Shown here: positions 12,806 through 55,103 of the stretch, one piece after another
Position numbering within the stretch: the stretch's first letter is position 1
How the letters are laid out: each line of letters starts with the position of its first letter
NCBI GenBank assembly: GCA_965203255.1
Contig: OZ241882.1
Span: 5,391,436 to 5,455,435, forward strand
From: Paracoccaceae bacterium
Lineage (GTDB): Bacteria > Pseudomonadota > Alphaproteobacteria > Rhodobacterales > Rhodobacteraceae
Length of the DNA: 64,000 nucleotides
Direction: 5' to 3'
Program-made: the position numbers and the translations under genes
The notes under the pieces: generated by a model
What the model saw: the letters and a program-made list of their open reading frames with translations, nothing else
The model's database searches: none
Told to the model about the DNA's origin: nothing

Positions 12806-12871
12806 TATGACCTTGAGCATCCGCTGGCTTCCGCAGTGGAATTCGGTGAAGGATTTGGGGATGGTCCACAT

Positions 12872-13330
12872 ATGATCCGATATGCCCTGAAGTGTGGTCA
12901 GAACCACGAGTTCGAGAGTTGGTTCGCTACCGCTGAGGCATTCGACAAGCTGCGGAGCAGCGGCATGATTTCGTGTCCAGTCTGCGATTCCGATCAGATC
13001 GAAAAGGCTATGATGGCCCCAGGCGTTCGTCCATCCCGTGCCAAGGCACAGCCTTCCGGGCCGGAGACTGTTTCCCAGGAGAGCCAGGTCTCATTGAAGG
13101 AGCCAATGTCAGAACTCGAGGCGAATTTGGCGAAATTGCGTCAGCACGTGGAGAAAAACTCTGACTATGTGGGCCTCAGTTTTGCGAAAGAGGCGCGGAA
13201 AATGCATGATGGGGAAATCCCTCATCGTTCGATCTATGGCGAGGCGCATCGGGATGAGGCGAGAAAACTCGTGGAAGATGGCGTTCCGGTTGCGCCGTTG
13301 CCGTTTCTGCCGAGCCGAAAGGCGAACTGA
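12872..13330 (+). CDS. DUF1178 family zinc-ribbon protein
   Basis: MIRYALKCGQNHEFESWF...CPVCDS is the DUF1178 N-terminal signature. Confidence 0.75.
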   Translation: MIRYALKCGQNHEFESWFATAEAFDKLRSSGMISCPVCDSDQIEKAMMAPGVRPSRAKAQPSGPETVSQESQVSLKEPMSELEANLAKLRQHVEKNSDYVGLSFAKEARKMHDGEIPHRSIYGEAHRDEARKLVEDGVPVAPLPFLPSRKAN

Positions 13331-13758
13331 GCATCTGTCAACCGTGAATTGCTGATTGTCATTTGACGTCGCGTCAGGAACCGATCGGACTCCCTTTCAC
13401 TAAGGTCGAAAGAACTTCATTTGCCCGGCCCCGCCCGATGATTTTCCGCTCCCCTTGCGCCTTGGAGGTCGGGCGATCGTAGCTAACGGAATCGATTGTG
13501 ACATCGAAGAAGAGGGTTGCCTGCGGTTCTCTGGCTCGCAAGACGATAATGGAGGGCCACCGATAACCTGTTCAGCAAGTTGCGTAACCAGCCAGTTGTA
13601 GGCGGCAAGCGACAGTTCGACTGCCAGATCCGATGGGGCCGTCAACGATTTCGATGCCGGGAACGCGGCTTCGGCATTCCCTCTCAGACCAACGTGTTGA
13701 AGAGGTCGGTTGCGTCGGTGAAGTCGTTTGCGGTCGATCTCAATACCATTGCCACGTG

Positions 13759-36242: not shown

Positions 36243-36618
36243 GGAGACCTGTTGCCTAAACCGCTGCGAATCGTCAACCGTATGTCAAAAGTCGTTCACT
36301 CTCTGTGCGGCAAATCGGCTCTTGAGGCCTATCTCCCTGACCAAGGCGGTTTAGGATGTTGTGGCGGGTGCCGCGCGGTCGGATTTCCCGATCCGTTGCG
36401 GAGAACGCGCCAGTGCCGCCGCAGGGCGACCCCGACGGCAGGGAAGGAGGAGATTTCCGAGATGCAGGGGCTTCTTGAGGGAGCGAGGCCGGGCTGCGCT
36501 TCAACGGCAGGGTCCCGGTGACCGGCATCACTGTGATGCCACCGGAGACCGAGGGACTGTTGGAGGTTGGCACGCCCGCCGCGCCGATGATCGTCATCAT
36601 GCTGATGATGGTGTTGGC

Positions 36619-38911: not shown

Positions 38912-39063
38912 GGCGACCAGAGTGCCGGTACCCCACGCCCGCAATCCCTCAGGACGCCCCCGCATCCCCGCCTTCCCCGCCGTCAGGGTCGCCCCACGGC
39001 GGCGCTGGCGCGTTCTCCGCGACGGATCCGGGAATCCTGCCGCATGGCACCCACCACAACATC

Positions 39064-40595
39064 TTATGCCGATTTGGCCAGAGGAGCCTCTTGCACAATT
39101 ATCGCGGTTCGGGCTTGCGCTGCAAGCCTTTGGGTTCCTTCAGGGGCGCGGCACCGGAACTGACGGGTGCCCGGGGCGTTTCCACCGACTTGGGTGTGGC
39201 GGAATGCCGCAGTCTGTGGCCCGTCGGGCACCGTCCGCGCATGGCTGGCCGCGCCGTCCCCTCCGGGGCGGCGTCCGCGGCGTCCGGTGCTGCCGCGGCT
39301 GGTGGCGTCAGATGGTGAGCCGCATCAGCTGCCCGCCCGTCAGGGCCAGCACGCCGAAGAACAGGTGGCAGGCCACCCTGGCGTGCCCCCGGACGCGGAC
39401 GTGCCGGGCGCCGTAAGAGTCCTTCAGGGCGGAGTTCACGCGCCCGCCGCTGGAGCGCTGCCGGTAGCGGACGCGGTCGTGGCGTATGTGGCCCGCTTTC
39501 CTCTGCGCCAGCGCCTCTTTCCCGAGGCGCTCCCTCAGCGCCGCGTCGCGGCGGGGGTTGGTGTCGGTGACCGCCACGCGCCCCGTCAGGCAGGCGTGGA
39601 ACCCGATCTCCAGGGAACCGTGGCCGCGTCCATGAGCTCGTGGCAGTGGTCCACCCGCAGCGCCGTCATTTTCGACAGCGGGATGGCGGCCTGGCTGTCG
39701 TGCAGCGACGCCGAGGTCAGGATGCAGCTGACGGGGACGTCCCCATCGGCGGCGTCGATATGGAGCCTGTACCCCCTCCAGCTCTCCCTGTACCCCTTCG
39801 CGTTGCGCTTCGTGCCGGTGCCGCAGGCCTTCGGCAGCCCGTCGGCCATCTCCGCGGCGGTCATCCCGTCCCGCAGCTGCCGCTCCAGCCGGGTCGGCTC
39901 CTTCGGCCTCTCCTCCCCCTTTCCCGGGCGTCCGCGCTTTCGCTTCGGTCCCTCCTGCGGCTTCGGCTTCGGCGCCGGCCTCTCCCGCCCGACGATCGCC
40001 GTGGAGTCCCGCGATATGTGTCCGACGACCGAGCCGGCGTACGCGGCGCGGACCAGCGCCCCGTGCATCCGCTCCGGCAGCCGGGTCTCCGCGAACCAGG
40101 CGAAGGCGCGGGAGAACGCCGGTTCGCTGGGAACCTCCGATACGCGGGACCAGCCGACGGGCCTGCGCAGCGTCGGGTGGTGGCGCAGCCTGTCGACCGT
40201 CACCACCGTGGCCGGCATGTCCCACACCGCCCTCCCGACGAAGGCCCGCGCCAGCGCCCTGCGGTCGGCGGCAGGGTTGCCGACGCCCCCGTGGCTGTAG
40301 TGCACGTGCCTCTCGACCTCCACCAGGTCCAGGACGGCGACGGACCTGCCGTGCCTCACGCCCAGCGGCCCGACCTCCCCGGCGAGGGCCGGCAGAAGTT
40401 CCCCTTGAAACCGCTGCCAGGCATCTGATATGGAAGAACGTAGGGACATGGAGCCGTCTCCCCGTATGTAGTGGCTTTCACACCTGCTCCATACTAGAGG
40501 GACGGCTCCATATCCAGGCCATCCATCAGAAAAAGCGTCCGTTTCCGAAAAAAACCGCTTGATCGGGAAGTTCTGCAAGAAGCTCAGAGGATAAG
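39064..40595 (-). mobile_element. IS4-family insertion sequence (approximate ends)
   Basis: Imperfect terminal repeats CTTATGCC...GAGCCTCTTGCACAATTATCGCGGTT (39064-39108) pair with the reverse complement of 40543-40595, CTTATCC..GAGCTTCTTGCAGAACTT..ATCAAGCGGTT. They enclose the transposase frames. Confidence 0.55.
39308..40449 (-). pseudogene. IS4-family DDE transposase with a -1 frameshift
   Basis: From the ATG at 40449 the frame reads ...GYRLHIDAADGDVPVSCILTSASLHDSQAAIPL...HELMDAA and then stops. The next frame continues GSLEIGFHACLTGRVAVTDTNPRRD...RYRQRSSGGRVNSALKDSYGARHVRVRGHARVACHLFFGVLALTGGQLMRL. One missing base near 39620-39623 would restore DAAYGSLEI. Confidence 0.7.
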
Positions 40596-42504: not shown

Positions 42505-43482
42505 ATGCGAATTGATGGACTGCAATACGCCAATTGGTCTGAGAGGATTTTCCGTCAGATGCGCGAGGGCGGCATGGACGCTGTCCACGTGACGATCTGT
42601 TATCACGAAAATTTCCGGGAAACCGTTCTGAACATCGAGCGATGGAACAAGTGGTTCAAGCGATTTCCAGACCTCATAATGCCGGCGCGTCGGGCGTCTG
42701 ATATTGATTGCGCCCGAAGAACCGGCCGGACGGCGATATTCTTCGGGCTCCAGAACTGCGCACCGATCGAGGATGATGTTGGTCTCGTGGAAATTATTCA
42801 CGCACTTGGTGCCAGGTTCATGCAACTGACCTACAACAACCAGTCGTTGCTTGCAGGGGGGTGCTATGAGTCTGAGGACAGCGGAATCACCCGCATGGGG
42901 CGGCAGGTGATCAGGGAAATGAACAGGGTCGGTCTTGCTGTAGACATGAGCCATTCGGGTGACAGGTCGACAATTGAGGCGGCGGAAATTTCCGAACGAC
43001 CGATTGCCATCACGCACGCCAATCCATTTGATTGGAAGCCAGCACGTCGCAACAAGCGCGAAGATGTCATTCGTGCCGTGGTCGAAGCAGGCGGAATGAT
43101 CGGATTCTCGTTGTACCCCCATCACCTTCGGGGCGGACCCGACTGTACGCTCCGCTGCTTCTCGGAAATGGTGGCTCGTACGGCTGACCGATACGGAGTG
43201 GACCACTTCGGGATTGGGTCAGACCTTTGCCAGGATCAACCCGACAGTGTAGTAGCTTGGATGCGGAATGGTCGGTGGTCCACGACAACCGACTTCGGCG
43301 AGGGATCTGCCGATGAACCTGGTTTTCCTCCGATGCCCGCATGGTTCCGGAACAATCGCGATTTTGCCAATATCGAAGTTGGCCTTCGCAGGGTCGGCAT
43401 GCACGATGCGGAAGTTGCGGCGATAATGGGTGGAAATTGGTACCGATTTTTCGCTGAGGCTTTCGAATCGAATTCGTCATGA
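42505..43482 (+). CDS. M19 family membrane dipeptidase
   Basis: IDGLQ..., FMQLTYNNQS, VDMSHSG and ITHANP are renal-dipeptidase family motifs. Start chosen at MRIDGLQ. Confidence 0.8.
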   Translation: MRIDGLQYANWSERIFRQMREGGMDAVHVTICYHENFRETVLNIERWNKWFKRFPDLIMPARRASDIDCARRTGRTAIFFGLQNCAPIEDDVGLVEIIHALGARFMQLTYNNQSLLAGGCYESEDSGITRMGRQVIREMNRVGLAVDMSHSGDRSTIEAAEISERPIAITHANPFDWKPARRNKREDVIRAVVEAGGMIGFSLYPHHLRGGPDCTLRCFSEMVARTADRYGVDHFGIGSDLCQDQPDSVVAWMRNGRWSTTTDFGEGSADEPGFPPMPAWFRNNRDFANIEVGLRRVGMHDAEVAAIMGGNWYRFFAEAFESNSS

Positions 43483-45167
43483 GGTCCAGGGGCCGGCGGA
43501 TCGAACGGCGGGCTCCGTCCGAAGTGATGCGGCTCAGTCGACTCGGAGCGTTCCATCAATGCCGCTTGAGTTTCATGCGTGTTCTGACCCGCCGGATCGC
43601 GCGGGATCGATGGCGGTTCGAGCGGCCATTCTTCGAGGTCGACAGGGTGGGTGTGGGTCGTGCCGTCTATACGGCCCTTGGCCCTGAGAGAAGCTACTCC
43701 TTGGTTGCGTTTTCACATGACTTGCCAGATGCGATGCGTTCAGACCGAGTGATCGCGGAGGCATGGGATGCCACGTTTGCGCTACACGACGGAGTTCCAA
43801 CAGAGTCGGATATCCATCGGTTGGCGCGTAACGTGCCATTGCAGGAAGCGGGGCGTGTAACGGAACGGGAACTTGTTCTCTCCAGGGCAAATAGATCGGT
43901 TCGGCTATGGAGACATGTGGTCGACTCACTCGCATCGGGATGTCAGCCTGATTCCGCACTTATCGAACAGGTTGGATACCTCATGCGGACGACAGCGGTC
44001 TATGGGTCAGGCAAGTTTGGTGCCGCCGACCGCGACATGATCGCAGGCCGAGTCGAATTGAGGGCACCATTTCAGGCGGAAATGCTCTCAATATACCTCA
44101 TACGGACATTCGCTCGTGATCTGGTCGAGCACATGGCTCGGCAACGTGGAGGAAGCCAGGCCGTTTGTTTGGATCCCGCAATTGCGAGGTCGATGGGAAT
44201 CGGAAATTCAACCGGCCTAGGCATGGCTCCGTTCATCATCAATCACCCGGTGCTCTTCAACAATTGGATCATGGCACGTGAGGAAGCTGTCGCGCTTGTT
44301 CGTTCGGTCCAAAGAGCAACATCGGCGGAGTCTGCAATCTTTGTTGAGTTGCTGGCCCGCTCCGAGGAGGACGTGCGGAAATGGAAAACGGAGCACCCTC
44401 GACAGGCAGAGCGGGTAGCTGAACTCAAATTGGACCTTAAGGCATTGCGAGGCTTTGTACAGGCCAGCAATCTTTGGAACGACGACTACCCTTGGGACAA
44501 ACTAGTGGATTGGGCGGGAAAGGCGTTGTCCGAGGAAGGACTGGAACTGCTTGTATCACTCATACTCGAACCGTACGGGGAATTTGTCGATGGTTTGGTC
44601 GCCGACATGTCAAGCAATTGTGCAGGCACTCCTGCGATTGATGGCGAGATGACTATCTCGGAAATTCGAGCGCAGATAGAAAAGTCCTTTGGATGGGCAC
44701 TCGCGCTCAATTGGAGAGCGCCCGAAAACTGTGCCCGCGTGTGGTATATTTCGGAAGAAAAGCTGGAGCCACGTCTTGGCGAGCGGTATGAGGAACCGAT
44801 TGGCGATTTCGAGCAACCTCTTTCTCCTGCCCGAGATGCGGTGAGAGCATATGCTGACTTGGCCCAATGGGACGGTGACAGCCCAATCGCTGAATTCCTG
44901 AACGTCCACGCAGAGCACCGGCACGTAATCCGTCGCACGCAAATGTGCAGAGATGCTCCCTATGGCGAGATCCGTGACAACACGATTTCGGCGGACCTGG
45001 TTCCACTCGACATGTTACGAGCCAAACTCTCTTTCTTTGGTGCTACCCGTTTCGATCCAAGATCGGATAGATGGATCCGGATCTGTATGTTTGCCGGTGC
45101 TCCGCATCCGGAGGAACTGTCTCCTGACAACGCTGATTTCTGGGTTTATACCGAATCGGACATATGA
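43479..45167 (+). CDS. Conserved hypothetical protein (562 aa), translationally coupled to the dipeptidase
   Basis: Long ORF with protein-like composition. ATGA overlaps at both ends (43479 and 45164). I recognise no family. Confidence 0.6.
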   Translation: MRSRGRRIERRAPSEVMRLSRLGAFHQCRLSFMRVLTRRIARDRWRFERPFFEVDRVGVGRAVYTALGPERSYSLVAFSHDLPDAMRSDRVIAEAWDATFALHDGVPTESDIHRLARNVPLQEAGRVTERELVLSRANRSVRLWRHVVDSLASGCQPDSALIEQVGYLMRTTAVYGSGKFGAADRDMIAGRVELRAPFQAEMLSIYLIRTFARDLVEHMARQRGGSQAVCLDPAIARSMGIGNSTGLGMAPFIINHPVLFNNWIMAREEAVALVRSVQRATSAESAIFVELLARSEEDVRKWKTEHPRQAERVAELKLDLKALRGFVQASNLWNDDYPWDKLVDWAGKALSEEGLELLVSLILEPYGEFVDGLVADMSSNCAGTPAIDGEMTISEIRAQIEKSFGWALALNWRAPENCARVWYISEEKLEPRLGERYEEPIGDFEQPLSPARDAVRAYADLAQWDGDSPIAEFLNVHAEHRHVIRRTQMCRDAPYGEIRDNTISADLVPLDMLRAKLSFFGATRFDPRSDRWIRICMFAGAPHPEELSPDNADFWVYTESDI

Positions 45168-45808
45168 ATCTGTCTCTGAATGAAGTTGAATCGATTGCCC
45201 GCAAGGCTGCTCGCGGGGCTGGTTACGACTGGGGTAGCTGCGAGGAGGCAGGATGGGCGGTTCGGTGGCTTTGCTCATTCAAATTGGATGGATGCGGCGC
45301 TCTCGCAGCGCGGTTGCATCATTGCAGCGTTTCATTGCCAGGAGACGTTGCTCCAAAAGTAAATGGAAGAACTTGGAAGGCGTCGGGTGATTTCATGTGC
45401 CCGATTCTGGCAGGTGCTGCCATTTCGGACTTCGCTTATGCGAGCGGTGAAGAAGGTTGGGTGCTTGAGTCAGTCGCCTATCCGGTGTTGTTGCTTCCGT
45501 TTGCATCCCGAATTGCGAAACAGATGCGATCAGTTGTCAGTGTTTCGTGGGGTCGTACCGAGACTTCCGCGAGCGCTGAACAGTTCGGCGTAAAGGTAGG
45601 TTACGATCAACTCGACACTGCTTATGCTCAATATGTCAATGTCCGTATTGCTGGGACACTCTGCGGTTTGCTCCCCAAGGTTCACCGGGTTTGGCCGGAC
45701 GCGGATGACTGGGACGCGTTGGTTGCTCTAGCAGGTAGGACATATGCCCCGGCCACCGAAGAATCACGGTCTCTCGGTGCTGGGGGAGGCTTGAACGACA
45801 ATGACTGA
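45164..45808 (+). CDS. DUF3726-like protein
   Basis: The N-terminus MNLSLNEVESIARKAARGAGYDWGSCEEAGWAVRWL resembles the DUF3726 signature. Confidence 0.55.
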   Translation: MNLSLNEVESIARKAARGAGYDWGSCEEAGWAVRWLCSFKLDGCGALAARLHHCSVSLPGDVAPKVNGRTWKASGDFMCPILAGAAISDFAYASGEEGWVLESVAYPVLLLPFASRIAKQMRSVVSVSWGRTETSASAEQFGVKVGYDQLDTAYAQYVNVRIAGTLCGLLPKVHRVWPDADDWDALVALAGRTYAPATEESRSLGAGGGLNDND

Positions 45809-46096
45809 TGCAAACCAGTTGACTTGGTAAACCGGATTGTGTTTTCGATTGCGATCTCAACGACGTGTTCAGAGAGATCGGTCTCGTTCCGTCGACCTAT
45901 CGGAAGGCTGGATCCGGGGTGCTGATATTCCTTGGCGGGTTGGCGTGACGGTTGATTCTCTGGAGTTACAGCTGCGACGTCCACCATCAATTCAATTGTT
46001 TCACAGGAACGTTCCCCCGCCACAACTTGTTGCACCATCGTCATTCCCTTGCACCGAATCACCGGCGAAGGCAAACGCCGACGCGTCTCATGGCAT

Positions 46097-46323
46097 CTGG
46101 CCGGCGCACCGTTCAGGCAGCGCAGTTCGTGCCGGGCGCCGTCGGCGTCGGTGAACCGGGCCGCGCGTGTGCCGGGTTCCGCGCCGGGGACGGAGCGGAG
46201 GCCGTGCCGCCGCAGGCGGGCGATGCGGGGCCCGTTGGAGGCGGGGCCGTCCTGCGGGACGATGGCCTTCAGGCGCCGACGCTCCCGCCGGAGGCCGTCG
46301 ACGGACCGCGCCGCGGCGTTGCG
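46097..46323 (+). repeat. Left copy of an inverted homologous GC-rich repeat bracketing the 47.5-53.5 kb island
   Basis: Aligns by eye at roughly nine in ten positions with the reverse complement of 53813-54069, apart from one ~29-bp indel. Confidence 0.75.
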
Positions 46324-47490
46324 CCCGCAGCCGTTCCTCCTGTCCCCGCCGGTCCTGGCGACCGGCTCCGGGGCCAGCGGCGGCGCCTCGCGGCGTTCCG
46401 GGTGGCGGACCACGGCGGCGGGCGTGCTGTGGGAGTGGCTCCCCGGCCCGTCACTGTGGCTGGCGACGCGGCGGTGGTGGCGGTGGACGGACCTCGGGCC
46501 GGGTGGCCGGCGCCGTCGACCGGGATCAGGCAACGGCCGTCGAGAACCGGCTGGCCCTCCAGCGCCCTGCCGCGCCGCAGCCCTGCGGACAGGGTCCTGA
46601 AGACCGGTGGCGGCCGCCTGGGGCCGGCCGTGCCGGGGCGCCTGCGCATGGGGGGGTCGCAGGGCGCCGCCGCGGTCCCGGACAGCGTCCGGAGGTTCCC
46701 GCGGACGATGGCGTCGCCGCGGCTGTCCCTGCCGGACCGCGGGAGCGACGGATACTTCAGCGGGAACATCGCGGACGCCGCCATGAGGTGGTCCCCAGGG
46801 CCGGACCGGCGGTCCCGCCGGAACATTCCGCCAGCGCCCCGACCGGCCCGGGCCTGCCGGGGTCCTTCCGGAACCGCATCGTCCCAGCTCCCGTCAGTGA
46901 GGCCAGCACGGATGCGGCAAGGGCAGGAGCCTATGATGTCCAGAGGATTCCGGGCGGTTTCCGGCCGCCGGGAAGGAAAGGTCCACCAAACCCGGATCAC
47001 GGAACCCCATGGAATACAGAGTCCGGAAGGGCTGGTGGGAATTGCTGGCGGCCCGGTCGCCGCTCGCCCGAATAACGCGAGCCGCCATTCTCTAACGGTC
47101 TCCAAGCCCTCGCGCGTCGGTTCAAGAAAGTCTGAGTTATTAGTTGGCGCTCCGCCGCTTCGAGTGCCGGGGCGCCCCGGATGTCCAGCCTGTTGTGGAG
47201 AACGGTGTCGTCAGGCGGATGCGGATAGCAGGAGTCGCGGTCGCTCATCCTGCCGTGTCGGCGCGGCCGCGATCTTCGATCCAGAGGAGGATACGGGTGC
47301 GCCGCTGCTCGGGCGACCACCCCTCGTGCTTGAACATCTCGACAAGGAGTAAGTTGGTGTGGGGTCAGCAATTGACGTCGCAGCGTGGCATGAGGTTGAC
47401 AGACACACCGGACTAGGCCACGTTCTATACGGCAACTACGCTGATCGCCGACATGGGCGAGAATGGCGCTGACTTGCTGAGGAGGCGGAA

Positions 47491-48228
47491 ATGAAAGCGG
47501 ATATTGAGATCGATGGCACTAAGTACGACGTTGCAGCCGGTTTGGTCAGCGCTCAAGTAATCTATGACTTGGTCGGATGTGACGGCGGACGTCTTTTTCT
47601 TAACCAAGAGGATGACATCGATATTCCGCTCGACTCTGCCAGCTTTATTATAATTAGAGGGCAAGAGTCGTTTGTGACCGGAGAGAGTTCGATTGAAGAC
47701 AATCCGCCACTACGAAAAACAATCCAGCTTAAGCTAAATGGCGAACTAGGCCCAACGCTGCCGAAGGCAATAATTACTGGGAAAGAACTCAAGGCGTTTG
47801 ACACTGAACACTCGGAAGGTCGTCTCTTTGCTGACATTGGTACTGGGCCAGATGCAGAGATAGCAGACGACACGAAGGTTCTGGTACAGGAAGGAAACGC
47901 CTTCTTCGTGATTCCAGCAAGTGACGGTTCTGGTGCTGGAGATCCGATAGACATCGAGAATTGCAGCCGACATGGCCGCCCACCACCTAAGGGGCAAAAA
48001 TATCGAATCAGGATCGATCGAGACAAATACACTATTGAGGAAGAAAAGATCACGGGTATGCAAATTTTGGCACTAGCTGAAAAGACGCCAGAAGAATGGG
48101 CGTTGAACCAGAAGCTAGTAGGAGGGAAAAGAGAACGGATCAGGGCAGACGACTTCGTTGACGTCTCACTACCCGGTGTCGAGCGGTTTGAGACCGTTCT
48201 CCGTCAGGCGCAGCAAGGACGTGAGTGA
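47491..48228 (+). CDS. Multi-ubiquitin-like protein with three tandem beta-grasp (Ubl) repeats
   Basis: Strong RBS GAGGAGG. There are three ~65-aa repeats with the same pattern: IEIDGTKYDV...SAQVIYDLVG...; LKLNGELGPT...TGKELKAF...; IRIDRDKYTIEEEKITGMQILALA.... The C-terminus is ...QQGRE. Confidence 0.65.
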   Translation: MKADIEIDGTKYDVAAGLVSAQVIYDLVGCDGGRLFLNQEDDIDIPLDSASFIIIRGQESFVTGESSIEDNPPLRKTIQLKLNGELGPTLPKAIITGKELKAFDTEHSEGRLFADIGTGPDAEIADDTKVLVQEGNAFFVIPASDGSGAGDPIDIENCSRHGRPPPKGQKYRIRIDRDKYTIEEEKITGMQILALAEKTPEEWALNQKLVGGKRERIRADDFVDVSLPGVERFETVLRQAQQGRE

Positions 48229-48610
48229 CGCCTTTGAACTGCTCCCGGAGGACGTTGAGTACCTTGATGCCAATCATCGAGGTCGATGGCGAAAACTCAA
48301 CGAAGGGAGTGGAAAGTACGGCCTTCTAATTGAGGGTTTTGCTGTTCCGGCTGGGTTCGCGCACTTAACAGCAGACCTTATGGTCCTGATACCTGCAGGG
48401 TATCCTGCATCTCCATTGGATATGTTCTATCTTGATCCACCGCTAAGTAAGTTGAACGACCAAGATGCGGGAGCGCTTTCAATCGAGGAACATTTTGCGC
48501 GTCGATGGCAGCGGTGGTCCAGGCACTATGGGTGGAGGCCGGGCGAGCATGACCTTACTTACCATATCGAATATGTCTGGCACGAACTGCAAGTAGCCGG
48601 CGCGAAATGA
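48221..48610 (+). CDS. E2/UBC-fold protein (Prok-E2_E-like) without any cysteine
   Basis: LMVLIPAGYPASPLDMFYLDPPL is the E2/UEV-type 'YPxxPP' flap. It is followed by RWQRWSRHYGWRPG. There is no Cys in the whole ORF. The GTG start at 48221 overlaps the Ubl stop. Confidence 0.6.
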   Translation: MSDAFELLPEDVEYLDANHRGRWRKLNEGSGKYGLLIEGFAVPAGFAHLTADLMVLIPAGYPASPLDMFYLDPPLSKLNDQDAGALSIEEHFARRWQRWSRHYGWRPGEHDLTYHIEYVWHELQVAGAK

Positions 48611-49998
48611 AACTCCTGACACTAGCGATGACTAGACGAACGCATGAATTGGCGTTCCGATACCTCTTTCCTGGAGATGGATTGGAGGCCGCGGGTGTCT
48701 TTATATGCAATCAAGGATCAGGGAAACATCATCAGAGGCTTGTAGTGGCAGAGTTTGTCGGGCTGTCTTACCCATTGTCTGACAGACGCGTAAACAAGGT
48801 TACGTGGCCGTTCGAAGCACACTTCGCGCCAGACACGATCACCAACATTGATCGGCTGGGCCAATCTGTGATTACAGTTCACTCCCATCCGAATGGCGGC
48901 AACGAATTCTCAAAAATTGATGACGAGAATGATCGGGAACTATTTGCGTCAGTGAACGCGTGGTTTGATGACGGTAGAATTAATGGTGCGGCGATTATGT
49001 TACCGGATGGATTGGTTGTGGCGAGGTCGGTAGAGGAGGACGGTCAGTTTCGCGGCTTCCGTTCAGTCAATGTTGTGGGCGATAACATCTTAATTTGGAG
49101 CAGCAAGGAACGAAAGCGCTCAACTGCATATGAGAGGAAGTTGTCTCAAACATTTGGAGGGGGAACGCTCAATCGACTACGTACAATGAGAGTGGGGGTG
49201 GTGGGCTGTTCAGGAACTGGAAGTATTGTGATTGAGCTATTGGTTCGCAACTGTGTTGGACAGCTCGTGATTGTTGATAATGATGTTCTTGAGGAGAAGA
49301 ACCTCAACCGGATCATGAATGGTTCAGTAGTGGATGCCAAAAACAAACGATCAAAGGTGGAAGCGATTAGGGGGGCAGTTGAACGAACTGGACTTGGGAC
49401 CCAGATCGATGCGTATGATGCGTTGACCGACTCTCCGGAGGTCGTATCAGCACTAGTCGATTGCGATGTGCTCTTTGGCTGTGTGGACTCGGCCTTTGGG
49501 CGGTATCATTTAGAGTGTTTAGCCAGTGCGTATCTGATTCCTTATTTTGATGTCGGAGTGCATATAGCCGCCGACGGGACGGGAGACATCGGTGCTGCCG
49601 ACGCAGTGTCTCATTACGTCCACCCAGATGGGCGCGATTTGTGGTCTCGTGGTGCATACCACATGGATCAGGTGACAGCGGAGAATTGGCAACGAGCGGA
49701 CCCGGGGCACTACGAACGACAGCGCGTCGCTGGATACCTAGCGGCGGTGGGAGAGGAGCAACCGGCAGTAATGTCGGTGAACATGCAGGCGGCATGTATG
49801 GCGTTCAACGACTTTATCGCGCGAGTGCACGCATTTCGGTTTGACCTAGATCGTGACTTTGCTACCCAACGATTTCGCTTGGTTCACGGTTGTTTTGAAT
49901 CCGAAGCGGATGACGGGAAACCACATCGGCTGTTTGAACGGTACCGAGGTACCGGTGACAACAGTCTGCTTGTGCGGAACAATATTCGCCGTGATTAG
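48607..49998 (+). CDS. JAB/JAMM deubiquitinase-like domain fused to an E1/ThiF-like adenylation domain
   Basis: Exact JAMM motif HSHPNGGNEFSKID (HxHx7SxxD). Then a Rossmann motif RVGVVGCSGTGSIVIELLVRNCVGQLVIVDNDVLEEKNLNR and CDVLFGCVDS, which are typical of ThiF/MoeB/E1. ATGA overlap with the E2 gene. Confidence 0.75.
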   Translation: MKLLTLAMTRRTHELAFRYLFPGDGLEAAGVFICNQGSGKHHQRLVVAEFVGLSYPLSDRRVNKVTWPFEAHFAPDTITNIDRLGQSVITVHSHPNGGNEFSKIDDENDRELFASVNAWFDDGRINGAAIMLPDGLVVARSVEEDGQFRGFRSVNVVGDNILIWSSKERKRSTAYERKLSQTFGGGTLNRLRTMRVGVVGCSGTGSIVIELLVRNCVGQLVIVDNDVLEEKNLNRIMNGSVVDAKNKRSKVEAIRGAVERTGLGTQIDAYDALTDSPEVVSALVDCDVLFGCVDSAFGRYHLECLASAYLIPYFDVGVHIAADGTGDIGAADAVSHYVHPDGRDLWSRGAYHMDQVTAENWQRADPGHYERQRVAGYLAAVGEEQPAVMSVNMQAACMAFNDFIARVHAFRFDLDRDFATQRFRLVHGCFESEADDGKPHRLFERYRGTGDNSLLVRNNIRRD

Positions 49999-50356
49999 GT
50001 GGCTGTTCAACCAACTGGCTAAACGGCATCCGTACAGAACGGAGTGGGTGGAGGACCTGCCTGAACGCGTAGCGAGGGATACGGTCTACATCATAGGGGG
50101 AAAGAAGTATCCATTTCAGGCTGCGGTAGTATGTCCTCGGCGCCGATGCCGGCAGATCATCCACTTGGACATATCACCCGAGTTGCAAAAGCGGTGGCTG
50201 ATAACCGAGCATCCGGGCGGCGAGGTATCGTTGCACCCATCCGTGCACGTGACAGGGCGTAGCTGCAAATGTCACTATTGGCTGCAGCGCGGAAGGATTC
50301 GCTGGAGCGGAACGCCGAGCATTTTCGTGCCGAGGGAGAACAGGGATGATTCGTAG
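49991..50356 (+). CDS. DUF6527-like zinc-ribbon protein
   Basis: VVCPRRRCRQIIHLD...LHPSVHVTGRSCKCHYWLQRGRIRW fits the C..C ... PS....C.(C/S)H.w...G.I.W pattern I associate with DUF6527. The GTG start at 49991 overlaps the E1 stop. Confidence 0.5.
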   Translation: MIRWLFNQLAKRHPYRTEWVEDLPERVARDTVYIIGGKKYPFQAAVVCPRRRCRQIIHLDISPELQKRWLITEHPGGEVSLHPSVHVTGRSCKCHYWLQRGRIRWSGTPSIFVPRENRDDS

Positions 50357-51236
50357 GGTCATCGTAAGCCGGTTCAAGAAATTTCACCTTTTCGACTCCA
50401 ACCTGGAGGAGCGGATGGTTATTGCCGGTCCGAACAATTCGGGTAAGTCGACGCTATTGCAGGTTTTGGCGACCTGGGCGGAGCTGGGTGAGATTTGGTT
50501 GCGGAGTATTGCAGACCTAGGTTGCCAGGATTATCAGAGATTGCACCGCGTGGAAGTGAACGTTGCCAGCCTCGGGACGTTGGCGCTGTCTAGCTTCGAC
50601 CAGTTGTGGCATAATCGGGATACGAGAGAGCCGATTACCATCAGAGTATTGGCGGACGACTGGGACGTGGGTTTCGAACTCAGCTATCAGGATGCGACGA
50701 CCGCCATCGTGGAGCCGTTGACAGACATATCGGCACCGCAGCTTGATGCTTATGCGAATAACCCGCCGAAGGCACTCTACGTTCCGTCACTATCAGGATT
50801 GGATATTGACGAGCCCGAATATAGCGAAGGAGTAGTCACCACACGACTGGCTCACGGCAAAGGCGGAATGGTTCTTAGGAATATGGTTCAAGCCACAAGC
50901 CGTGACGATGCAAAATGGCGTACGCTGCAGAATACAATAAAGTCGTTCTTTGGTTTTGAACTTTCGAGACCAAGTGGTGTCGATCCGATAACGGTGCGGT
51001 ACAGGCACTCGGTAACGGACCATTGGTACGATCTGCTTAATGGTGCCGCAGGCTTCCTGCAAACGTTACTAGTGCAGTCCGCTCTCTTGCATTCGAGCGC
51101 GACGCTGTTTCTCATTGATGAGCCGGATGCTCATTTGCACGTGTTGCTCAAGGCGAAGATGTACCGCCTCATACGTGAGCACTGCGACGAAAATGACTGT
51201 CAGGTGCTGATCGCAACCCACTCCGGCAGCATCCAT
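50346..51236 (+). pseudogene. 5' part of a fused AriA/AriB (PARIS)-like ABC-ATPase/Toprim gene, interrupted by IS110
   Basis: Walker A GPNNSGKST, Walker B/D-loop LFLIDEPDAHLH, and H-loop IATHSG. Protein-like sequence ends at ...GSIH (codon CAT at 51234-51236), where the composition switches to GC-rich IS DNA. The start overlaps the upstream gene by 11 nt. Confidence 0.7.
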
Positions 51237-51438
51237 GTTGGAAATCAAGCCCGGATCCGGCTTTTTTCCGACTTTTTCCCGGTTTTTCCGCGGTTCCGTG
51301 TCCGGCTGTCCCGGACCTTTCCACAGCGTTCCCCACAGGCGGCGGCGTCCGGGCGCGCCGAAGGGCCCGCCGGGGAGACCCCGGCCGGCCCGCCGGTGAT
51401 TCGCTTTCGGTGCCGGACGGACGCGGTCCGGCCTGCCG

Positions 51439-52383
51439 TCAGGCGGCGGCCGCCGTCCGGTCCTCCCACATCCGGCGGTCGCGGAGAAGGGCGCTGGCGG
51501 TCACGACCAGCCTGCGCATGACGGCGACGGGGGCGACTTTGTGGGGCTTTCCCCTCTCCCGGAGCCGTTGGTACAGTTCCCTCATGTCCGGGGAGCACCT
51601 GCTGGCCGACAGCGCGGCCATATAGACGACATCCCTCGGCCTGCGGCGTCCGCCGCCGATGTGGCGCCCGCCCTTCAGGGTGCCGCTGTCTCGGGCGAAG
51701 GGGGCCACGCCGAGCAGGGATGCGGCCTGGCGGTTGCCGATGGCGCCCAGCTCGGCCATCCATGCGACCAGCGCCGCGGCGGTGACGGGGCCGATGCCGG
51801 GCACCGAGGTCAGGATGCGGTGGCTGTCGGCGAACTCCGGCGATGCGGCGACCGTCCCGCCGATCCGCCGCTCCAGCGCCACGATGGCGGCGTCGATGTC
51901 CTCGAGGACCCTGCCGACCTCCGTGCCGGGTGCGTCGGCGCCGACCTCCGACACGACGGTCCCCGTCCCGGCGCGCTGGTCCACGAGCTTCTCCCGCAGC
52001 ACCAGCATGTCGCGGAGCCGGTCGATGGCACCGGTGGCCGGCGCCGTGGCCCGCATGTCCGGGAACGCGGCCCCGAAGGCCGCCAGTATCCTGGCGTCCA
52101 CCCTGTCGGTTTTCGCAAGGGCCCCGGCGGCCTTCGGGAGATCCCTCGCCTGCCTCGGGTTCACGACGGTGGCGGAGAACCCCCTGGCGTGCAGCGACTG
52201 CAGAAGCGCCCGGTGCATGCGTCCCGTGGCCTCCATGACGGCCCGCGTGGCGCCGCCCTCCCTGAGGAGGCGGCCGACCTTGCGGAAGCCGACCGTGTCG
52301 TTGGTGGCCGTGAAGTCACGCCCGTTGACGTGGATGTTGAGTGTACGCTTGCTTACGTCGATTCCGGCGACTATGGCTGTCAT
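51439..52383 (-). CDS. IS110-family (DEDD) transposase/recombinase
   Basis: N-terminus IVAGIDVSKRTLNIHV. The C-terminus ...RGKPHKVAPVAVMRRLVVTASALLRDRRMWED is typical of IS110. Confidence 0.9.
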   Translation of the reverse strand: MTAIVAGIDVSKRTLNIHVNGRDFTATNDTVGFRKVGRLLREGGATRAVMEATGRMHRALLQSLHARGFSATVVNPRQARDLPKAAGALAKTDRVDARILAAFGAAFPDMRATAPATGAIDRLRDMLVLREKLVDQRAGTGTVVSEVGADAPGTEVGRVLEDIDAAIVALERRIGGTVAASPEFADSHRILTSVPGIGPVTAAALVAWMAELGAIGNRQAASLLGVAPFARDSGTLKGGRHIGGGRRRPRDVVYMAALSASRCSPDMRELYQRLRERGKPHKVAPVAVMRRLVVTASALLRDRRMWEDRTAAAA

Positions 52384-52700
52384 GCTCTCCCGCTCCTATC
52401 CTCGCGATGATCCGGTTCCGTGAACCCAGGCATCCATCCAGGACCCGGGAGACGGACGGGAGGGCGGGCCGACCACGCTGCCGGACGGATCCGCTGTCGC
52501 GATCCAAGGCCGTATCGGTCCAACCCGTCCTGCGGGGCAGGGCCCCGCACCGCCGCCGCCGGTAGTGGTCCGACGGCGGCGGTCCCGCCACAGGAATGAA
52601 CCGGAGGGACGGCGGAAGGCAACAGGCATGTTTTCCACAGGAAATCGCGCCAGATTTTTCCACAGCCACCTCCTCCTTTCATTTCTGATTCTCTGAACAT
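52384..52700 (-). ncRNA. Candidate bridge (guide) RNA region in the IS110 5' non-coding end
   Basis: A ~317-nt non-coding, hairpin-rich segment upstream of the recombinase, where IS110-group elements are reported to encode a bridge RNA. It contains GCATCCAT (52430-52437), identical to the 8 nt abutting the left junction (51229-51236). Confidence 0.3.
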
Positions 52701-53489
52701 ACGAGGCTGATCGGGGAAGCGGCGAGCGAAAAAGGAGAGAAACTGTTTCTTGTCACTGCAAGCGGTCTTAGGCCAGTTCGTAGGCAGGAGGCGGAGCAAC
52801 TGTTAACTATCTCTAGCGAGGAAATCGTATTGGCGGAAACAACGCAGCGGGTGGTGTATTTGGAAGGAAAGACTGATATTGATATTTTGCGGGAATGGGC
52901 AAAGGCGTTGGATCACCCAGCATGGCAGTACTTGGACAAAGGTTTCTGCGTGCCAACCGCGGAAGGGACGAGTCGAACTTATGCTAAAAAGCACTATCGT
53001 GCACTAAAGGCGCAAGTCCCGACGCTGCGCGCGTTGGAGGTGTGTGATCGAAATGGAGCCAAAGGCGAGCACTGGGATGACCTAGGGCCGGGCGAATTAC
53101 GTACGGAAGAGGGACGTAGGAATACGCCGGAAGGAATGAAGGTATTATACTGGACCCGCTATGAGATCGAAAACTATTTGATCCATCCGAGTGCGATATT
53201 ACGGTTTATCTCGCGGCGTATGGGAAAGGCGGCGAAAGAAGCGGCGGGAGAATACATGGAAAAATACTTACCTCGGGTGCTAATGGAAAGACCATTCGAA
53301 ACCACAGATACCGATCAGATCAAGGGCAAAAAAACAGTCGGTAGAATTCTGAGCGTGGCGGGGGTAGAGCTTGGAGAGTCGGACTACTTCCAAATCGCTG
53401 CTGAGATGTCGGCCAATGAAATACATCCGGACGTCGTAGCTATGCTGGACGAAATAGCGGCTCAACTGACTAGTGTAGCGCCATCGTAG
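52701..53489 (+). pseudogene. 3' part of the AriA/AriB-like gene: linker plus DUF4435/Toprim-like domain
   Basis: An open frame without a start codon runs from 52689: ...HTRLIGEAASEKGEKLFLV...EEIVLAETTQRVVYLEGKTDIDILREWA...ALEVCDRNG...WTRYEIENYLIHP, which are DUF4435/OLD-Toprim-like motifs. It is in phase with the 5' part if the IS is removed. Confidence 0.65.
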
Positions 53490-53812
53490 CAATGACGGTT
53501 CTGCCTGGCTGTCTCCCGGTATCATGCCGCCTTTGCCGGCGTCAGGCAACAGGCGGGCGATGGGAGAGGCGGCGGGGCAGACCGCCCCCGGCCCGCATCA
53601 TGGAACGGAGCGGACCATGGCACAGGAGACGGGGACTCCCGGAAAGGAACGCAGGATATACCGGATCCGCCTTTCGGATGGCGGGAGGGCGGGGCGGCGG
53701 CGTACAGGCGCCGGCACGCCCGGATCCTGCCGCTGGCCGACGGGGCCCGTGACGACGGGGGCCGCACCGGTTCCGGCATCGCGCCGGTCCTGAAGGTCGG
53801 CGTGTCGGCCGC

Positions 53813-54069
53813 CGCAACGCCGCGGCGCGGTCCGTCGACGGCCTCCGGCGGGAGCGTCGGCGCCTGGAGGCCATCGTCCCGCAGGACGGCCCCGCCTCCA
53901 ACGGACCCCGCATCGCCCGCCTGTGGCGGCACGGCCTCCGCTCCGTCCCCGGCGCGAAGCCCGGCGGCCACGCGCCGCCGTTCGCCAGCCCCGGCACACG
54001 CGCGGCCCGGTGCACCGACGCCGACGGCGCCCTGCGCGAACTGCGCTGCCTGAACGGCGCGCCGGCCAG
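53813..54069 (-). repeat. Right copy of the inverted homologous GC-rich repeat
   Basis: This is the reverse-complement match to 46097-46323 (see the left copy). Confidence 0.75.
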
Positions 54070-54772
54070 CGCCTCCCGTCCCGACATCGGGGCCAGCGTC
54101 ACCGGATGCCGGGAGACGGTCACCAGAAGGAAATGCGTCGCGGGGCGCCACCGCGGTCCGGACGGCCCGGCCCACCGGGGCGGGGGGAAACGGAAGGGGC
54201 TCCCCTGGGTCACCGACCTTCCCGTGGACGGCGGCAGCCCCGTGCCGGCCATGCGCGCCGCCCGCTCCCGCTGGCGCACCGGGAACGGGACCCCGGCACG
54301 CCGGGGAACCAGGGCCACCGCTCCGGGACCGGCTTCGGGCACGGAAAGCGGCGCCTGACCAAGGTGCCCGCCATGACGGTGACGCCCGCGTTCCCCACCG
54401 ACCGGACCGGGGCCGCCTCCCGCAGGGTGTTCGCCGCCGCGCCGGGGCGAGGGGGCGGACGGGGTGCCTCCGGGAGGGAACCCGGCAGTGCTTCCCCGGC
54501 TTCCCGGTCCCCGACTGGCGGACCCTCCACCCCGCCCTGACCCACGGGCACGCGGCGGCGGCCTTGGCCGTCGCCGGGCCGTCCGGACGGTCGCCGCCGC
54601 GGCGCGGGGCGCCCAGGCGCGCCTGGGCGCCCGACCGAGCCGCCCACGGGCAGACCCGCGACACATCCCCTTTTTCCGCCGGAACGCCGCCGGAGGCTCC
54701 CGCACGCCCGGATTCCGCCCGAATCCGACGCCGACGCCCGCGCCACGCCGGAAACCGGACCGGAATCTCACT

Positions 54773-54791
54773 GGTGGGAATTTCTGTTTGG
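54773..54791 (+). repeat. ISKra4-like terminal-repeat motif at the edge of a GC-rich block
   Basis: GGTGGGAATTTCTGTTTGG versus the ISKra4 IRL GGGTGTGATTTCTGTATGG: 16 matching columns by eye. A 12-mer GAATCATGCGAC further inward (54851-54862) also occurs at the stop-codon end of the intact ISKra4 transposase. Confidence 0.3.
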
Positions 54792-55103
54792 ATCCCGAGT
54801 CGATGTGGAGTACCTTGGCTGACGTACGTTTTGGAACTCGGTCTTCCGCATGAATCATGCGACTTGGTGTCAGGCCGATACCCGCGAAGAACGCGTGCTT
54901 CTCCTCGACCTTCCTGAACGGCAGCCGGAAGTGACTGTGATCCGCCTCCGCGCTCACTATGGAAATCCGGTTCAGCGAGCGCAGCCTGCGAAGAACCGCA
55001 TCAATTGCAACGCGCTATCCGGCAAGAAGTCGCAGAAAGCTGCACTTGGGTCGTCGCCTGCATGGAAATCGAGCAAGTTCAGCAAGCGGAGTTGGCACGG
55101 TTT

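Follow-up and report, generated by a model that had tools for sequence, protein, structure and literature searches.

A conserved cassette joins a Type I Bub ubiquitin-like conjugation operon to an ABC-ATPase–Toprim protein

Type I Bub is represented by Citrobacter sp. RHBSTW-00271, whose BubAB-BubCD-BubE operon was described structurally and biochemically in 2024 (bioRxiv 10.1101/2024.11.21.623953 and.623966; PDB 9ea4, 9eae and 9eav). In the published work, DUF6527 (BubE) works as a Ser-His protease and has a C4 zinc site, and the Cys-less Bub E2 is active, acting via a Ser oxyester. Ubl3 proteins assemble into filaments in a Ca2+-dependent manner, and a role of these in sequestering conjugated targets has been proposed; as early as 2006, the description of 6e provided for separate as well as fused Ubl and E2. 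A published survey of 544 Bub operons mentions only regulators as associated genes. In the Bub literature up to 2026 no Bub operon is shown to protect against phage and no effector is reported, so that the preliminary description of the present locus went too far in taking Bub for an established antiphage system. In PARIS, AriB, a Toprim tRNase, is kept inactive by the AriA ATPase and released by a phage trigger; fused forms are known.

Within the 64-kb window (the whole stretch of DNA analysed, to which all positions refer), five same-strand genes occupy positions 47491-53489. Direct reading of the sequence reveals stop/start overlaps at all four junctions: 8 nt between bubA (TGA, 48226-48228) and bubB (GTG, 48221), 4 nt (ATGA) between bubB and bubCD (ATG, 48607), 8 nt between bubCD (TAG, 49996-49998) and bubE (GTG, 49991), and 11 nt between bubE (stop, 50354-50356) and the fifth gene (gene 5; ATG, 50346). 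A Shine-Dalgarno sequence, GAGGAGG, was likewise read directly ahead of bubA, at 47479-47485. It lies in a conserved leader or promoter region (47344-47490, plus strand), matched at 80-86% identity by the sequence ahead of the Ubl gene in four relatives (L001, L002, L005 and L065), with no match further upstream. The cassette has a G+C content of 52.2% versus 57.9% in the remainder of the window. The coupling of the genes and the lower-G+C island noticed earlier are thereby borne out, whereas 'IS-rich' overstated the surroundings, which hold one recognizable IS, the IS110 element in gene 5. Flanking blocks of 76-77% G+C matched no Pfam or Rfam family, and no CapW, CapH+CapP or CapK+CapS regulator adjoins the cassette in the window. 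The five genes almost certainly constitute a translationally coupled mobile cassette, in which genes 1-4 are Type I Bub (6E.1) and gene 5 encodes an ABC-ATPase with a Toprim nuclease.

The first gene, bubA (47491-48228, plus strand), encodes a 245-aa triple beta-grasp ubiquitin-like protein (Ubl3; Pfam Multi_ubiq, 2.6e-20). Profile-profile comparison of its repeats (hhalign; d1 versus d2 93%, d1 versus d3 91%) agrees with the three beta-grasp repeats first proposed, and its profile matches the solved Ubl3 structures 9cd2, 8u38 and 9d5b. The protein ends in ...QQG243-RE, with Q241-Q242-G243 invariant in 34 homologues, and the two-residue RE tail is the predicted part to be clipped. bubB (48221-48610, plus strand, GTG start) encodes a 129-aa Cys-less E2-like protein (Pfam Prok-E2_E, 1.9e-25), which Citrobacter BubB (9eae_C) matches at 6.9e-16; its LDMFY and QRWSRH segments align with D299/S333/H335, its candidate catalytic residues are Asp67, Ser100 and His102, and it contains zero cysteines. 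The E2 type had been recognized correctly, but the supposed YPxxPP flap reads YPASPL, and by the published oxyester chemistry a Cys-less E2 is not inactive. Split Ubl and E2 genes with the -8 overlap were found again in many relatives and are fused in others. bubCD (48607-49998, plus strand) encodes a 463-aa fusion of a JAB/JAMM peptidase and an E1 adenylation domain (ThiF 8.1e-22, Prok-JAB 3.4e-6), as anticipated from its JAMM motif (HSHPNGGNEFSKID, with Glu27 upstream) and its Rossmann loop, GCSGTG. Citrobacter BubCD (PDB 9ea4) matches it at 2.2e-59; E27, H92, H94, D105, R235 and Y377 are conserved (BubCD counterparts E28, D104, R227 and Y370), and the catalytic Tyr, Y377, is invariant in 21 homologues. 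bubE (49991-50356, plus strand) encodes a serine protease/deconjugase of 121 aa that belongs to DUF6527 and has a zinc site (Pfam DUF6527, 1.5e-13; PF20137 is now called 'BubE' in the precomputed Pfam set), in which C48, C53, P83-S84, C92 and H95 are invariant in 30 homologues (lowest identity 32%). Here the DUF6527 assignment stood, but the C..C spacing did not (the pattern is C-x4-C ... C-x-C-H), nor did the reading as a mere Zn ribbon, Ser84 and His95 of the Ser-His protease being invariant. On sequence grounds, genes 1-4 make up a Type I Bub operon (formerly 6E/DUF6527), not a new system and not just 'related to' Bub, and the conjugation module is therefore one already described.

A 1476-bp insertion of the IS110 family (51230-52705, minus strand; transposase ORF 51439-52383; DEDD_Tnp_IS110 6e-19, Transposase_20 6e-18), which has 70% G+C and an 'AG' at either junction, interrupts gene 5 at codon 295. 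Up to 51229 the gene is colinear with intact homologues, and the four relatives named above are continuous from window position 51229 to 52704, leaving the host sequence without loss. Joining 50346-51229 (plus strand; N-terminal 295 codons, the ABC-type ATPase of an OLD/AriAB-like protein, AAA_21 2.5e-16, AAA_15 5.7e-15) to 52706-53489 (plus strand; C-terminal 260 codons, a linker and a Toprim-like nuclease domain supported by the restored ORF and fold matches) gives a single 555-aa ORF. Since gene 5 is split, the window's copy of the cassette is probably dead through its inactivation; the AriA/AriB-like fusion of the preliminary description was right in kind but is not intact.

The restored protein carries Walker A (GPNNSGKST), Walker B (LFLIDEPD) and ATHS motifs, followed in its C-terminal part by YLEGKTD and YEIENYL. 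Across 45 homologues little or no variation is seen at K34 of Walker A, D258/E259 of Walker B or H292, and in the Toprim part E348, D352, E448 and E450 do not vary and D409 hardly does, which argues that the enzymatic activity is under selection. Pfam matches of genes 1-5 (for gene 5, AAA_21 and AAA_15) all exceed the curated cut-offs. The C-terminal domain matched no Pfam family above threshold; DUF4435, suggested for it earlier, reached 13 bits against a cut-off of 27 bits. The top PADLOC model for gene 5 was AriAB (1.6e-23), and the C-domains of the homologues matched AriAB in 28 of 45 cases and AriB in 15 of 45; a PDB sequence search with the C-domain profile matched no AriB chain. Structure comparison bore out the kinship with defence nucleases: the full-length fold matches TsOLD (6p74, E 4.7e-14) and GajA (about 1e-11) over both domains, and the C-terminal part (AF2 model, pLDDT 89) has as its top match the C-terminal Toprim region of OLD 6nk8 (E 3.8e-4, with a moderate TM of 0.50), followed by AriB chains 8ux9_A and 8v46_D and GajA. 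Gene 5 is a single-chain ABC-ATPase and Toprim protein of the OLD/Gabija/PARIS superfamily.

Gene 5 has no mention in the accessible Bub literature, and our literature search found no paper describing a combination of Bub with an ATPase-Toprim protein, in line with the earlier impression that it is uncharacterized. The five-gene order recurs in other genomes. Among 79 related loci, found with the E1, gene 5 is present in 53 and absent from 26; 39 of the 53 are intact compact cassettes with the same gene order and gene 5 as one ORF, and 14 are disrupted. As most Bub operons also lack gene 5, Bub does not need it. In nearly all cassettes (about 50 loci) gene 5 begins before bubE ends, with 4-26 nt shared. 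They come from nine phyla, mostly from uncultured MAGs, several with sponge symbionts named in their record titles, and the flanking genes vary between loci. Pairwise identities of gene 5 correlate with those of the E1 (r = 0.87-0.88) as those of the Bub genes do among themselves (0.83-0.90). In the reverse check, starting from gene 5, homologues at 37-38% identity (P0219 and P0239) still lie directly 3' of Bub genes, and no member of the close gene 5 clade was without neighbouring Bub genes in the neighbourhoods examined. Within the clade of E1 identity of at least 57%, no swap of gene 5 for another effector was seen; one locus (L017) lacks gene 5 outright, as do four further close loci on short or cut contigs. 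Judged from these comparisons of sequences, gene 5 belongs to the cassette as a conserved component and co-evolves with the Bub genes, and we consider it likely that the five genes form one co-selected functional unit.

Co-evolution and overlap are also expected, however, from co-inheritance of two stacked systems, that is, an autonomous PARIS/OLD-like abortive-infection gene fixed 3' of Bub, co-transcribed and co-transferred with it without cross-talk. OLD Class 1 and fused AriAB are single-gene systems, defence genes cluster and move together (neighbours of Bub loci without gene 5 include a Type III Res gene, PDC-M19A/B and an HNH gene), Bub is widespread without gene 5, and gene 5 relatives occur without Bub, which speaks against coupling. 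Retention of the overlap across so many loci and phyla, the constant company of Bub in the close gene 5 clade and the lack of effector swaps nevertheless make such independence improbable.

In 11 of 51 loci a divergent HTH_3 and Peptidase_M78 (CapH/CapP-like) pair is found immediately upstream, RM methylases adjoin the cassette in several, and housekeeping genes often flank it. The last observation, the sponge-symbiont titles and the fact that Bub was never shown to protect against phage and may be a global stress pathway would suit a role other than antiviral: in sponge-associated bacteria the cassette would serve general stress response or symbiosis, and its ATPase-Toprim protein DNA repair or RNA turnover instead of abortive infection. 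This is very unlikely, however, because the proteins nearest to gene 5 by structure and by profile (OLD, GajA, AriB, Septu/retron ATPases) are without exception defence nucleases, because the regulators and RM neighbours occur in a fraction of loci, and because patchy cross-phylum spread and frequent disruption are typical of defence cassettes.

By analogy with Citrobacter, with which the present proteins share the catalytic residues, BubCD would use its JAB domain to trim the Ubl and expose Gly243, and the E1 domain would adenylate it and then hold it on Tyr377; the Ubl would pass to Ser100 of BubB and on to target lysines, from which Ser84/His95 of BubE would strip it. As part of one unit with Bub, induced by stress or phage, the gene 5 nuclease may serve as the killing or abortive arm, tied physically or functionally to the Bub proteins and held latent until Bub is perturbed or engaged, a proposal we make tentatively and at slightly less than even chances. 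We favour, with somewhat greater doubt still, a PrrC/PARIS-style guard, in which the ATPase would sense a phage-caused disturbance of the partner system and the Toprim domain would then cut tRNA or DNA. The PrrC precedent and the restraint of AriB by AriA favour such a guard, as do distant full-length relatives of gene 5 whose ORFs overlap or abut their neighbours within RM operons, one between Type III Mod and Res (L089) and one 2 nt downstream of a Type IIG enzyme (L090). As a close second, the nuclease could be switched directly as a Bub substrate or client, Ubl3 attachment or filament sequestration versus removal by BubE/JAB setting its latent or active state. The conserved linkage, overlap and co-evolution, the Ubl3 filaments and the lack of a published Bub target or effector fit this, as does a natural fusion (P0254, two assemblies) in which a Ubl3 ending in QQG is joined in frame directly to an ATPase-Toprim protein. 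P0254, however, is without E2, E1 and BubE, so gene 5 may be self-sufficient, and the fusion may simply be a deletion product. Moreover, gene 5 relatives operate alongside RM genes where a Ubl is absent, the sequence singles out no conserved acceptor lysine, and Citrobacter BubA in E. coli conjugates to many proteins non-specifically; we consider direct switching rather unlikely. The Bub/nuclease pairing may point to the purpose of this tagging pathway.

Among known systems, Type II CBASS Cap2/Cap3 and Bil (BilABCD) resemble the cassette in tying bacterial E1/E2/JAB machinery to immunity, and share with part of its loci CapH+CapP-like regulators. Theirs, however, is thioester (Cys) chemistry with other E1 architectures, CBASS effectors are nucleotide-activated, and PADLOC E1-E2 models matched only the Rossmann part of the cassette (1e-10). 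The gene for PrrC, an anticodon nuclease and latent NTPase-nuclease, sits within the EcoprrI Type Ic R-M operon, a placement in another defence operon shared by the gene 5 relatives in Type III or beside Type IIG R-M; the PrrC nuclease fold is not Toprim and is unrelated to that of gene 5, so this analogy is purely functional. Like fused AriAB of PARIS, gene 5 has an ABC ATPase and then a Toprim-like domain in one chain, with the N-terminal 'xEGxxD' Glu at the position of the AriB catalytic Glu motif, but its DUF4435 score is far under the Pfam threshold and its partner is a Ubl conjugation operon, which PARIS lacks. The gene 5 fold matches Class 1 TsOLD (a class that also holds P2 Old) and Class 2 Gabija GajA, its C-domain being nearest to the OLD proteins of Burkholderia and Xanthomonas, in their Toprim region. 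Sequence identity is just 12-15%, however, the DxD is often D-x-N/D, there is an extra invariant ExE (YEIExY) motif, and neither a UvrD-like helicase nor a retron (Class 3 being retron-associated) is the partner; since the genomic partner is what defines an OLD class, Bub fits as another. Type I Bub itself shares with genes 1-4 all four protein families and their order, along with JAB Glu/His/His/Asp, E1 Arg and Tyr, E2 Asp/Ser/His, BubE Ser/His and Cys, and Ubl3 terminal Gly. Ubl and E2 are separate ORFs here and the Ubl has an 'RE' tail, whereas Citrobacter has a BubAB fusion and the clade has both; the main difference is the conserved fifth gene.

The five ORFs of the cassette occupy 47491-53489 on the forward strand, and all of their successive junctions overlap, as the preliminary description had proposed and as direct reading of the junctions confirms. 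The stop of bubA, the ubiquitin-like (Ubl) gene, at 48226-48228 lies past the GTG start of bubB, the E2-like gene, at 48221 (an 8-nt overlap in different frames); bubB and bubCD, the JAB-E1 gene, overlap in an ATGA at 48607; bubE, the DUF6527 gene, starts with GTG at 49991, ahead of the bubCD stop at 49996-49998; and gene 5, encoding an ATPase-Toprim protein, starts with ATG at 50346, ahead of the bubE stop at 50354-50356. Ahead of bubA, GAGGAGG at 47479-47485 provides a strong Shine-Dalgarno sequence; promoter and terminator scanning gave counts not above those of shuffles. Pfam searches returned, over curated cut-offs, Multi_ubiq, Prok-E2_E, Prok-JAB with ThiF, DUF6527, and AAA_21/AAA_15 for genes 1-5 in order. 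Every domain motif quoted earlier is present in the sequence, with two changes of detail: the E2 flap given as YPxxPP is YPASPL, and the gene 4 cysteines given as C..C/C.CH are C-x4-C ... C-x-C-H. The cassette had also been placed on a lower-G+C island in IS-rich DNA; its G+C content is indeed 52.2%, against 57.9% for the remainder of the window, but this DNA is not demonstrably IS-rich.

Together, genes 1-4 form a Type I Bub (6E.1) operon. The 6E/DUF6527 neighbourhood was described by Iyer et al. (2006) as a polyUbl, a Cys-less E2-like protein, a JAB-E1 and a metal-binding protein 'Y', and was renamed Bub and characterized in two 2024 preprints (10.1101/2024.11.21.623953 and 10.1101/2024.11.21.623966). 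According to these, trimming of the Ubl precursor falls to the JAB domain of BubCD; the Ubl is bound as an oxyester by the E1 (Ubl~Tyr) and by BubB (Ubl~Ser); conjugates are stripped by the Ser-His protease DUF6527 (BubE), which has a C4 zinc site; and Ubl3 proteins form Ca2+-dependent filaments. The gene 1 product matches Multi_ubiq (Pfam, 2.6e-20) and, at the profile level, solved Ubl3 structures in the PDB. It consists of three mutually related beta-grasp units (hhalign) and ends in QQG243 plus two residues, with QQG243 invariant in 34 sequences, as befits a Type I Bub Ubl of between one and three beta-grasp domains with a conserved terminal Gly that processing uncovers. The gene 2 protein contains no cysteine and aligns to BubB (9eae_C, 6.9e-16) with D67, S100 and H102 at the positions of D299, S333 and H335, the arrangement of an invariant Ser with His and Asp that marks the Cys-less BubB. 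Gene 3 matches Citrobacter BubCD (9ea4) at 2.2e-59 over residues 6-437, its E27, D105, R235 and Y377 aligning to E28, D104, R227 and Y370; Y377 is invariant among homologues, in keeping with a homodimeric-type E1 that bears the JAB/JAMM peptidase at its N terminus and works through a Tyr of the crossover loop. Gene 4 matches PF20137 (Pfam, 1.5e-13), and C48, C53, S84, C92 and H95 are invariant in homologues down to 32% identity, in keeping with the Ser-His dyad and C4 zinc site of BubE. From this residue conservation, the window genes are predicted to carry out oxyester Ubl transfer and isopeptide conjugation.

The sole departure from the 2024 definition is the separation of Ubl and E2. One 2024 preprint gives them as a single BubAB fusion in all Type I operons, whereas in the window they are separate ORFs in different frames with the 8-nt overlap; in the 2006 description by Iyer et al., a polyUbl separate from the E2 is the usual form of 6e. 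The split could have been a frameshifted BubAB, which is ruled out by the recurrence of the identical -8 overlap and of a 'QQG + 2-5 residue' tail. Since the split form with this overlap is conserved in many relatives, and others of the same clade have the fused form, the split is not a lesion. We treat it as a variant of Type I Bub and see in it no ground for exclusion.

Gene 5 is interrupted in the window by an insertion of 1476 bp with 70% G+C (51230-52705), which carries on the reverse strand an IS110 transposase (DEDD_Tnp_IS110 and Transposase_20; Pfam 6e-19 and 6e-18). The closest relatives (loci L001, L002, L005 and L065 of other genomes) align to 47344-51229 and resume at 52704-53474 without loss, and the two bases AG are found at both insertion junctions. 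The Pfam matches and the colinearity of relatives across the site show the DEDD transposase and clean insertion expected of the IS110 family. Joining 50346-51229 to 52706-53489 gives a single ORF of 555 aa, and homologues with an intact gene have it as one ORF of 534-566 aa; the window copy of gene 5 is therefore disrupted, and the window cassette is an IS-inactivated relic. A deletion within gene 5 caused by the element is ruled out, as the insertion is clean and the rejoined halves restore the ORF.

Several other features of the window were noted. Two blocks of 76-77% G+C flank the cassette (46050-47000 and 53500-54800). The right block adjoins the cassette directly, whereas the left block stops about 350 bp short of it on the upstream side; the two have in common an inverted repeat of 230-260 nt (46097-46328 and 53808-54069) at 85-95% identity. 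Long ORFs run on both strands of the blocks; the seven ORFs searched gave no Pfam match, the blocks gave no Rfam match, and no copies were found elsewhere in the window or beside the cassette in relatives. The blocks could be the ends of an unrecognized mobile element by which the cassette was delivered. Just upstream of the left block, and downstream of a Peptidase_M19 gene, 43479-45808 holds a 562-aa ORF without a Pfam family, overlapping by 4 nt a gene for a 214-aa DUF3726 protein. Farther away, a gene for a HipA-family toxin kinase (36619-37935, reverse strand) lies between 118-nt inverted repeats (36337-36454 and 38964-39081, 82% complementary), and a 72% G+C stretch at 39-40 kb of the window has no Pfam match.

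The restored gene 5 protein has an ABC-type Walker A, Walker B and H-loop (AAA_21 1.3e-16, AAA_15 1e-14), with K34, D258 and H292 invariant, as in the N-terminal ABC ATPase of the OLD family. In PADLOC the fused PARIS protein AriAB is the top match (1.6e-23), followed by NsnB, AriA, GajA and Old. The AlphaFold2 model (pLDDT 89.4) matches Class 1 OLD (6p74, E 4.7e-14) and Gabija GajA (about 1e-11) over both domains, and further fold matches are Septu and retron ATPases. When the C-terminal 219 residues were modelled separately (pLDDT 89.1), the best fold matches were the OLD Toprim regions from Burkholderia and Xanthomonas (6nk8 and 6njv; E 3.8e-4 to 1e-3, TM 0.42-0.50), followed by AriB in two PARIS complexes and then GajA. 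Acidic residues expected of a Toprim metal site are conserved, E348, D352, E448 and E450 without variation and D409 almost so. These AriAB, AriB, GajA and OLD matches agree with the PARIS-like ATPase/Toprim reading of the preliminary description.

The C-terminal domain is divergent in sequence. No Pfam match to Toprim or DUF4435 at threshold was found in it; DUF4435 reaches 13 bits, with the cut-off at 27 bits (E 0.088), and only 5 of 45 homologues match it even at E <=0.1. A profile search of the PDB with this domain returned no sequence matches, and among PADLOC models AriAB matches 28 and AriB 15 of the 45 homologues, weakly. Gene 5 thus gives no match at threshold to the AriB-type DUF4435 Toprim expected of PARIS; in this domain it matches only the PADLOC AriAB and AriB models. 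We describe it as an OLD-superfamily, AriAB-like putative ATPase-Toprim nuclease, likened to AriAB and not classed as a member of PARIS.

To place the window among other genomes, one genome per species was scanned with a BubCD alignment as query, which yielded 79 loci, and the window proteins were compared to these by tblastn. Gene 5 is present in 53 loci. In 39 the cassette is intact and compact, with its order unchanged and gene 5 a single ORF (L001 and L002 are examples, the latter at 8885-13440 of its locus on OZ241893.1), so that the five-gene order is conserved well beyond the window; in the other 14 some part is disrupted or lost at a contig end. The presence of gene 5 follows the E1: identity to the window E1 is at least 57% in every locus with gene 5, and loci at 52% or less all lack it. 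Gene 5 is missing as well from five loci closer in E1, of which four lie on short or cut contigs. The start of gene 5 overlaps the bubE stop by 4-26 nt nearly everywhere. Pairwise identities of gene 5 and E1 are correlated (r = 0.87-0.88) as tightly as those among the Bub genes, and in the reverse check gene 5 homologues at just 37-38% identity still sit directly after Bub genes.

Host titles include Alpha- and Gammaproteobacteria, Latescibacterota, Dadabacteria, Nitrospirota, Thermodesulfobacteriota, Rhodothermales, Longimicrobiales, Chloroflexota and Binatia. E1 identity is 57-68% across nine phyla and the flanking genes vary by locus, indicating that the cassette moves horizontally as a unit. 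Five-gene cassettes occur almost only in uncultured MAGs (loci L001-L063), with sponge symbionts among the host titles (Poriferihabitans, Spongiihabitans, Tethybacter, Porisulfidus and Poribacteria), and this range of E1 identity suggests that the cassette spread recently, by horizontal transfer inside a single habitat. BubCD relatives were found on 91 plasmids, none of them of the five-gene clade, for which the best match among sequenced plasmids has 23% identity; no BubCD relatives were found in phage records.

A divergent pair encoding HTH_3 (118-126 aa) and Peptidase_M78 (166-284 aa) proteins is found 100-650 bp upstream of the Ubl gene in 11 of the 51 five-gene cassettes (L013, L014, L015, L016, L020, L023, L024, L025 and others). 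The pair is of the CapH+CapP type, a DNA-damage-responsive regulator previously reported for Bub; it is absent from the window. Damaged cassettes were seen at L004, L008, L010, L013, L035, L039, L044, L045, L047, L049 and L065, with frameshift or truncation of gene 5, an insertion of 2.8 kb that separates bubE from gene 5, insertion in or beside the E1 gene, or a truncated or missing bubE. A few of the 14 non-intact loci owe this only to contig ends. The frequent inactivation may reflect a fitness cost of the cassette.

A profile search with gene 5 against 1.84 billion representatives returned 535 at E <= 1e-30, and some relatives do not adjoin Bub. One more distant full-length relative (L089:768-2474) has a Type III Mod fragment on one side and a Type III Res gene on the other, with overlaps of 4 nt, and another (L090:6001-7719) begins 2 nt after a Type IIG restriction-modification enzyme, which suggests that the gene 5 family serves as a module plugged into the operons of various defence systems. 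Type I Bub loci without gene 5 carry other defence genes directly after bubE (L055:11767-14577, L056:11762-14614, L057:11829-13546 and L062:11829-13001). These encode the PADLOC candidate pair PDC-M19A/B, an HNH_5 protein, and a Type III Res-like helicase-nuclease of approximately 940 aa that shares 31% identity with the Res adjoining the protein P0265. We considered a variable effector slot after bubE and ruled it out, as the Type III Res, PDC-M19A/B, HNH and AAA_14/DUF4143 genes look like ordinary defence-island neighbours.

In one protein of 806 aa (P0254; L087:8001-10421 and L088:2339-4759), a Ubl3 ending in RKQAQQG is fused in frame to the ATPase-Toprim. E2, E1 and BubE are all absent from its loci, which come from two assemblies, and the surrounding island holds DUF1156/DUF499, a DNA methylase, AAA_15+DUF3696, Eco57I, XamI and HTH_3-Peptidase_M78. 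The protein either arose from the five-gene cassette by deletion or is a Rosetta-stone fusion that ties Ubl to nuclease. It hints at a gated effector, in which the Ubl would be attached to, or sequester, the nuclease, and BubE or JAB would release it; we hold this possible, with limited confidence.

Identities, catalytic-residue conservation, operon structure and co-inheritance are observed, and the Bub reaction cycle is taken from the literature; how the Bub part and gene 5 might communicate is inferred. The reading that we favour, though with somewhat less than even confidence, is that gene 5 guards its partner system: the nuclease would stay latent in association with that system and would fire once a phage disturbs it. 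Such behaviour is familiar from PrrC, which sits in a restriction-modification operon and fires upon phage disturbance of its partner system. PARIS, likewise, fires on meeting an anti-restriction protein such as Ocr. We favour a guard because gene 5 relatives are embedded in restriction-modification operons, and because Bub in most lineages works without gene 5; the restriction-modification relatives also suggest a general 'plug-in guard' role. That gene 5 and Bub are two stacked systems acting independently we regard as unlikely, and a non-antiviral stress role for the cassette seems to us improbable.

As of mid-2026 the target and effector of Bub, whose cascade runs on Tyr and Ser oxyesters, are not known, and a 2026 EMBO J paper still reports it without demonstrated phage protection. 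The ATPase-Toprim might be the missing Bub output, with the nuclease gated directly by Ubl attachment or removal, or by a phage factor that perturbs Bub, a proposal in which we have limited confidence. If true, it would be the first case of prokaryotic ubiquitin-like conjugation controlling an abortive-infection effector, would define a new context-defined class of OLD nucleases, and would make the five-gene form the version of Bub with a measurable phage or toxicity phenotype. A lineage in which Bub is compactly and strictly coupled to a recognizable defence nuclease gives a concrete handle on the role of Bub, with a nuclease readout (toxicity, tRNA or DNA cleavage), known catalytic residues and dozens of natural intact cassettes.

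The preliminary description had put the operon forward as a candidate undescribed system. Genes 1-4 are the already characterized Type I Bub; the novelty lies in their union with gene 5, which is not described in the literature searched, including the two Bub preprints and the 2026 EMBO J paper, with the preprint's operon table outside the search. The published Bub survey took its 544 operons from IMG genome records, and because of this, and because the five-gene form is absent from sequenced plasmids, the form may have been overlooked earlier. In PARIS, an ABC ATPase keeps a Toprim tRNase latent until a phage trigger, and OLD/PARIS-type nucleases fall into classes set by their genomic partner; Bub is a new such partner. 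Neither part is new by itself, the conjugation module being already known and the nuclease being of the known OLD/PARIS type; what the papers searched do not describe is the conserved, translationally coupled union of the two.
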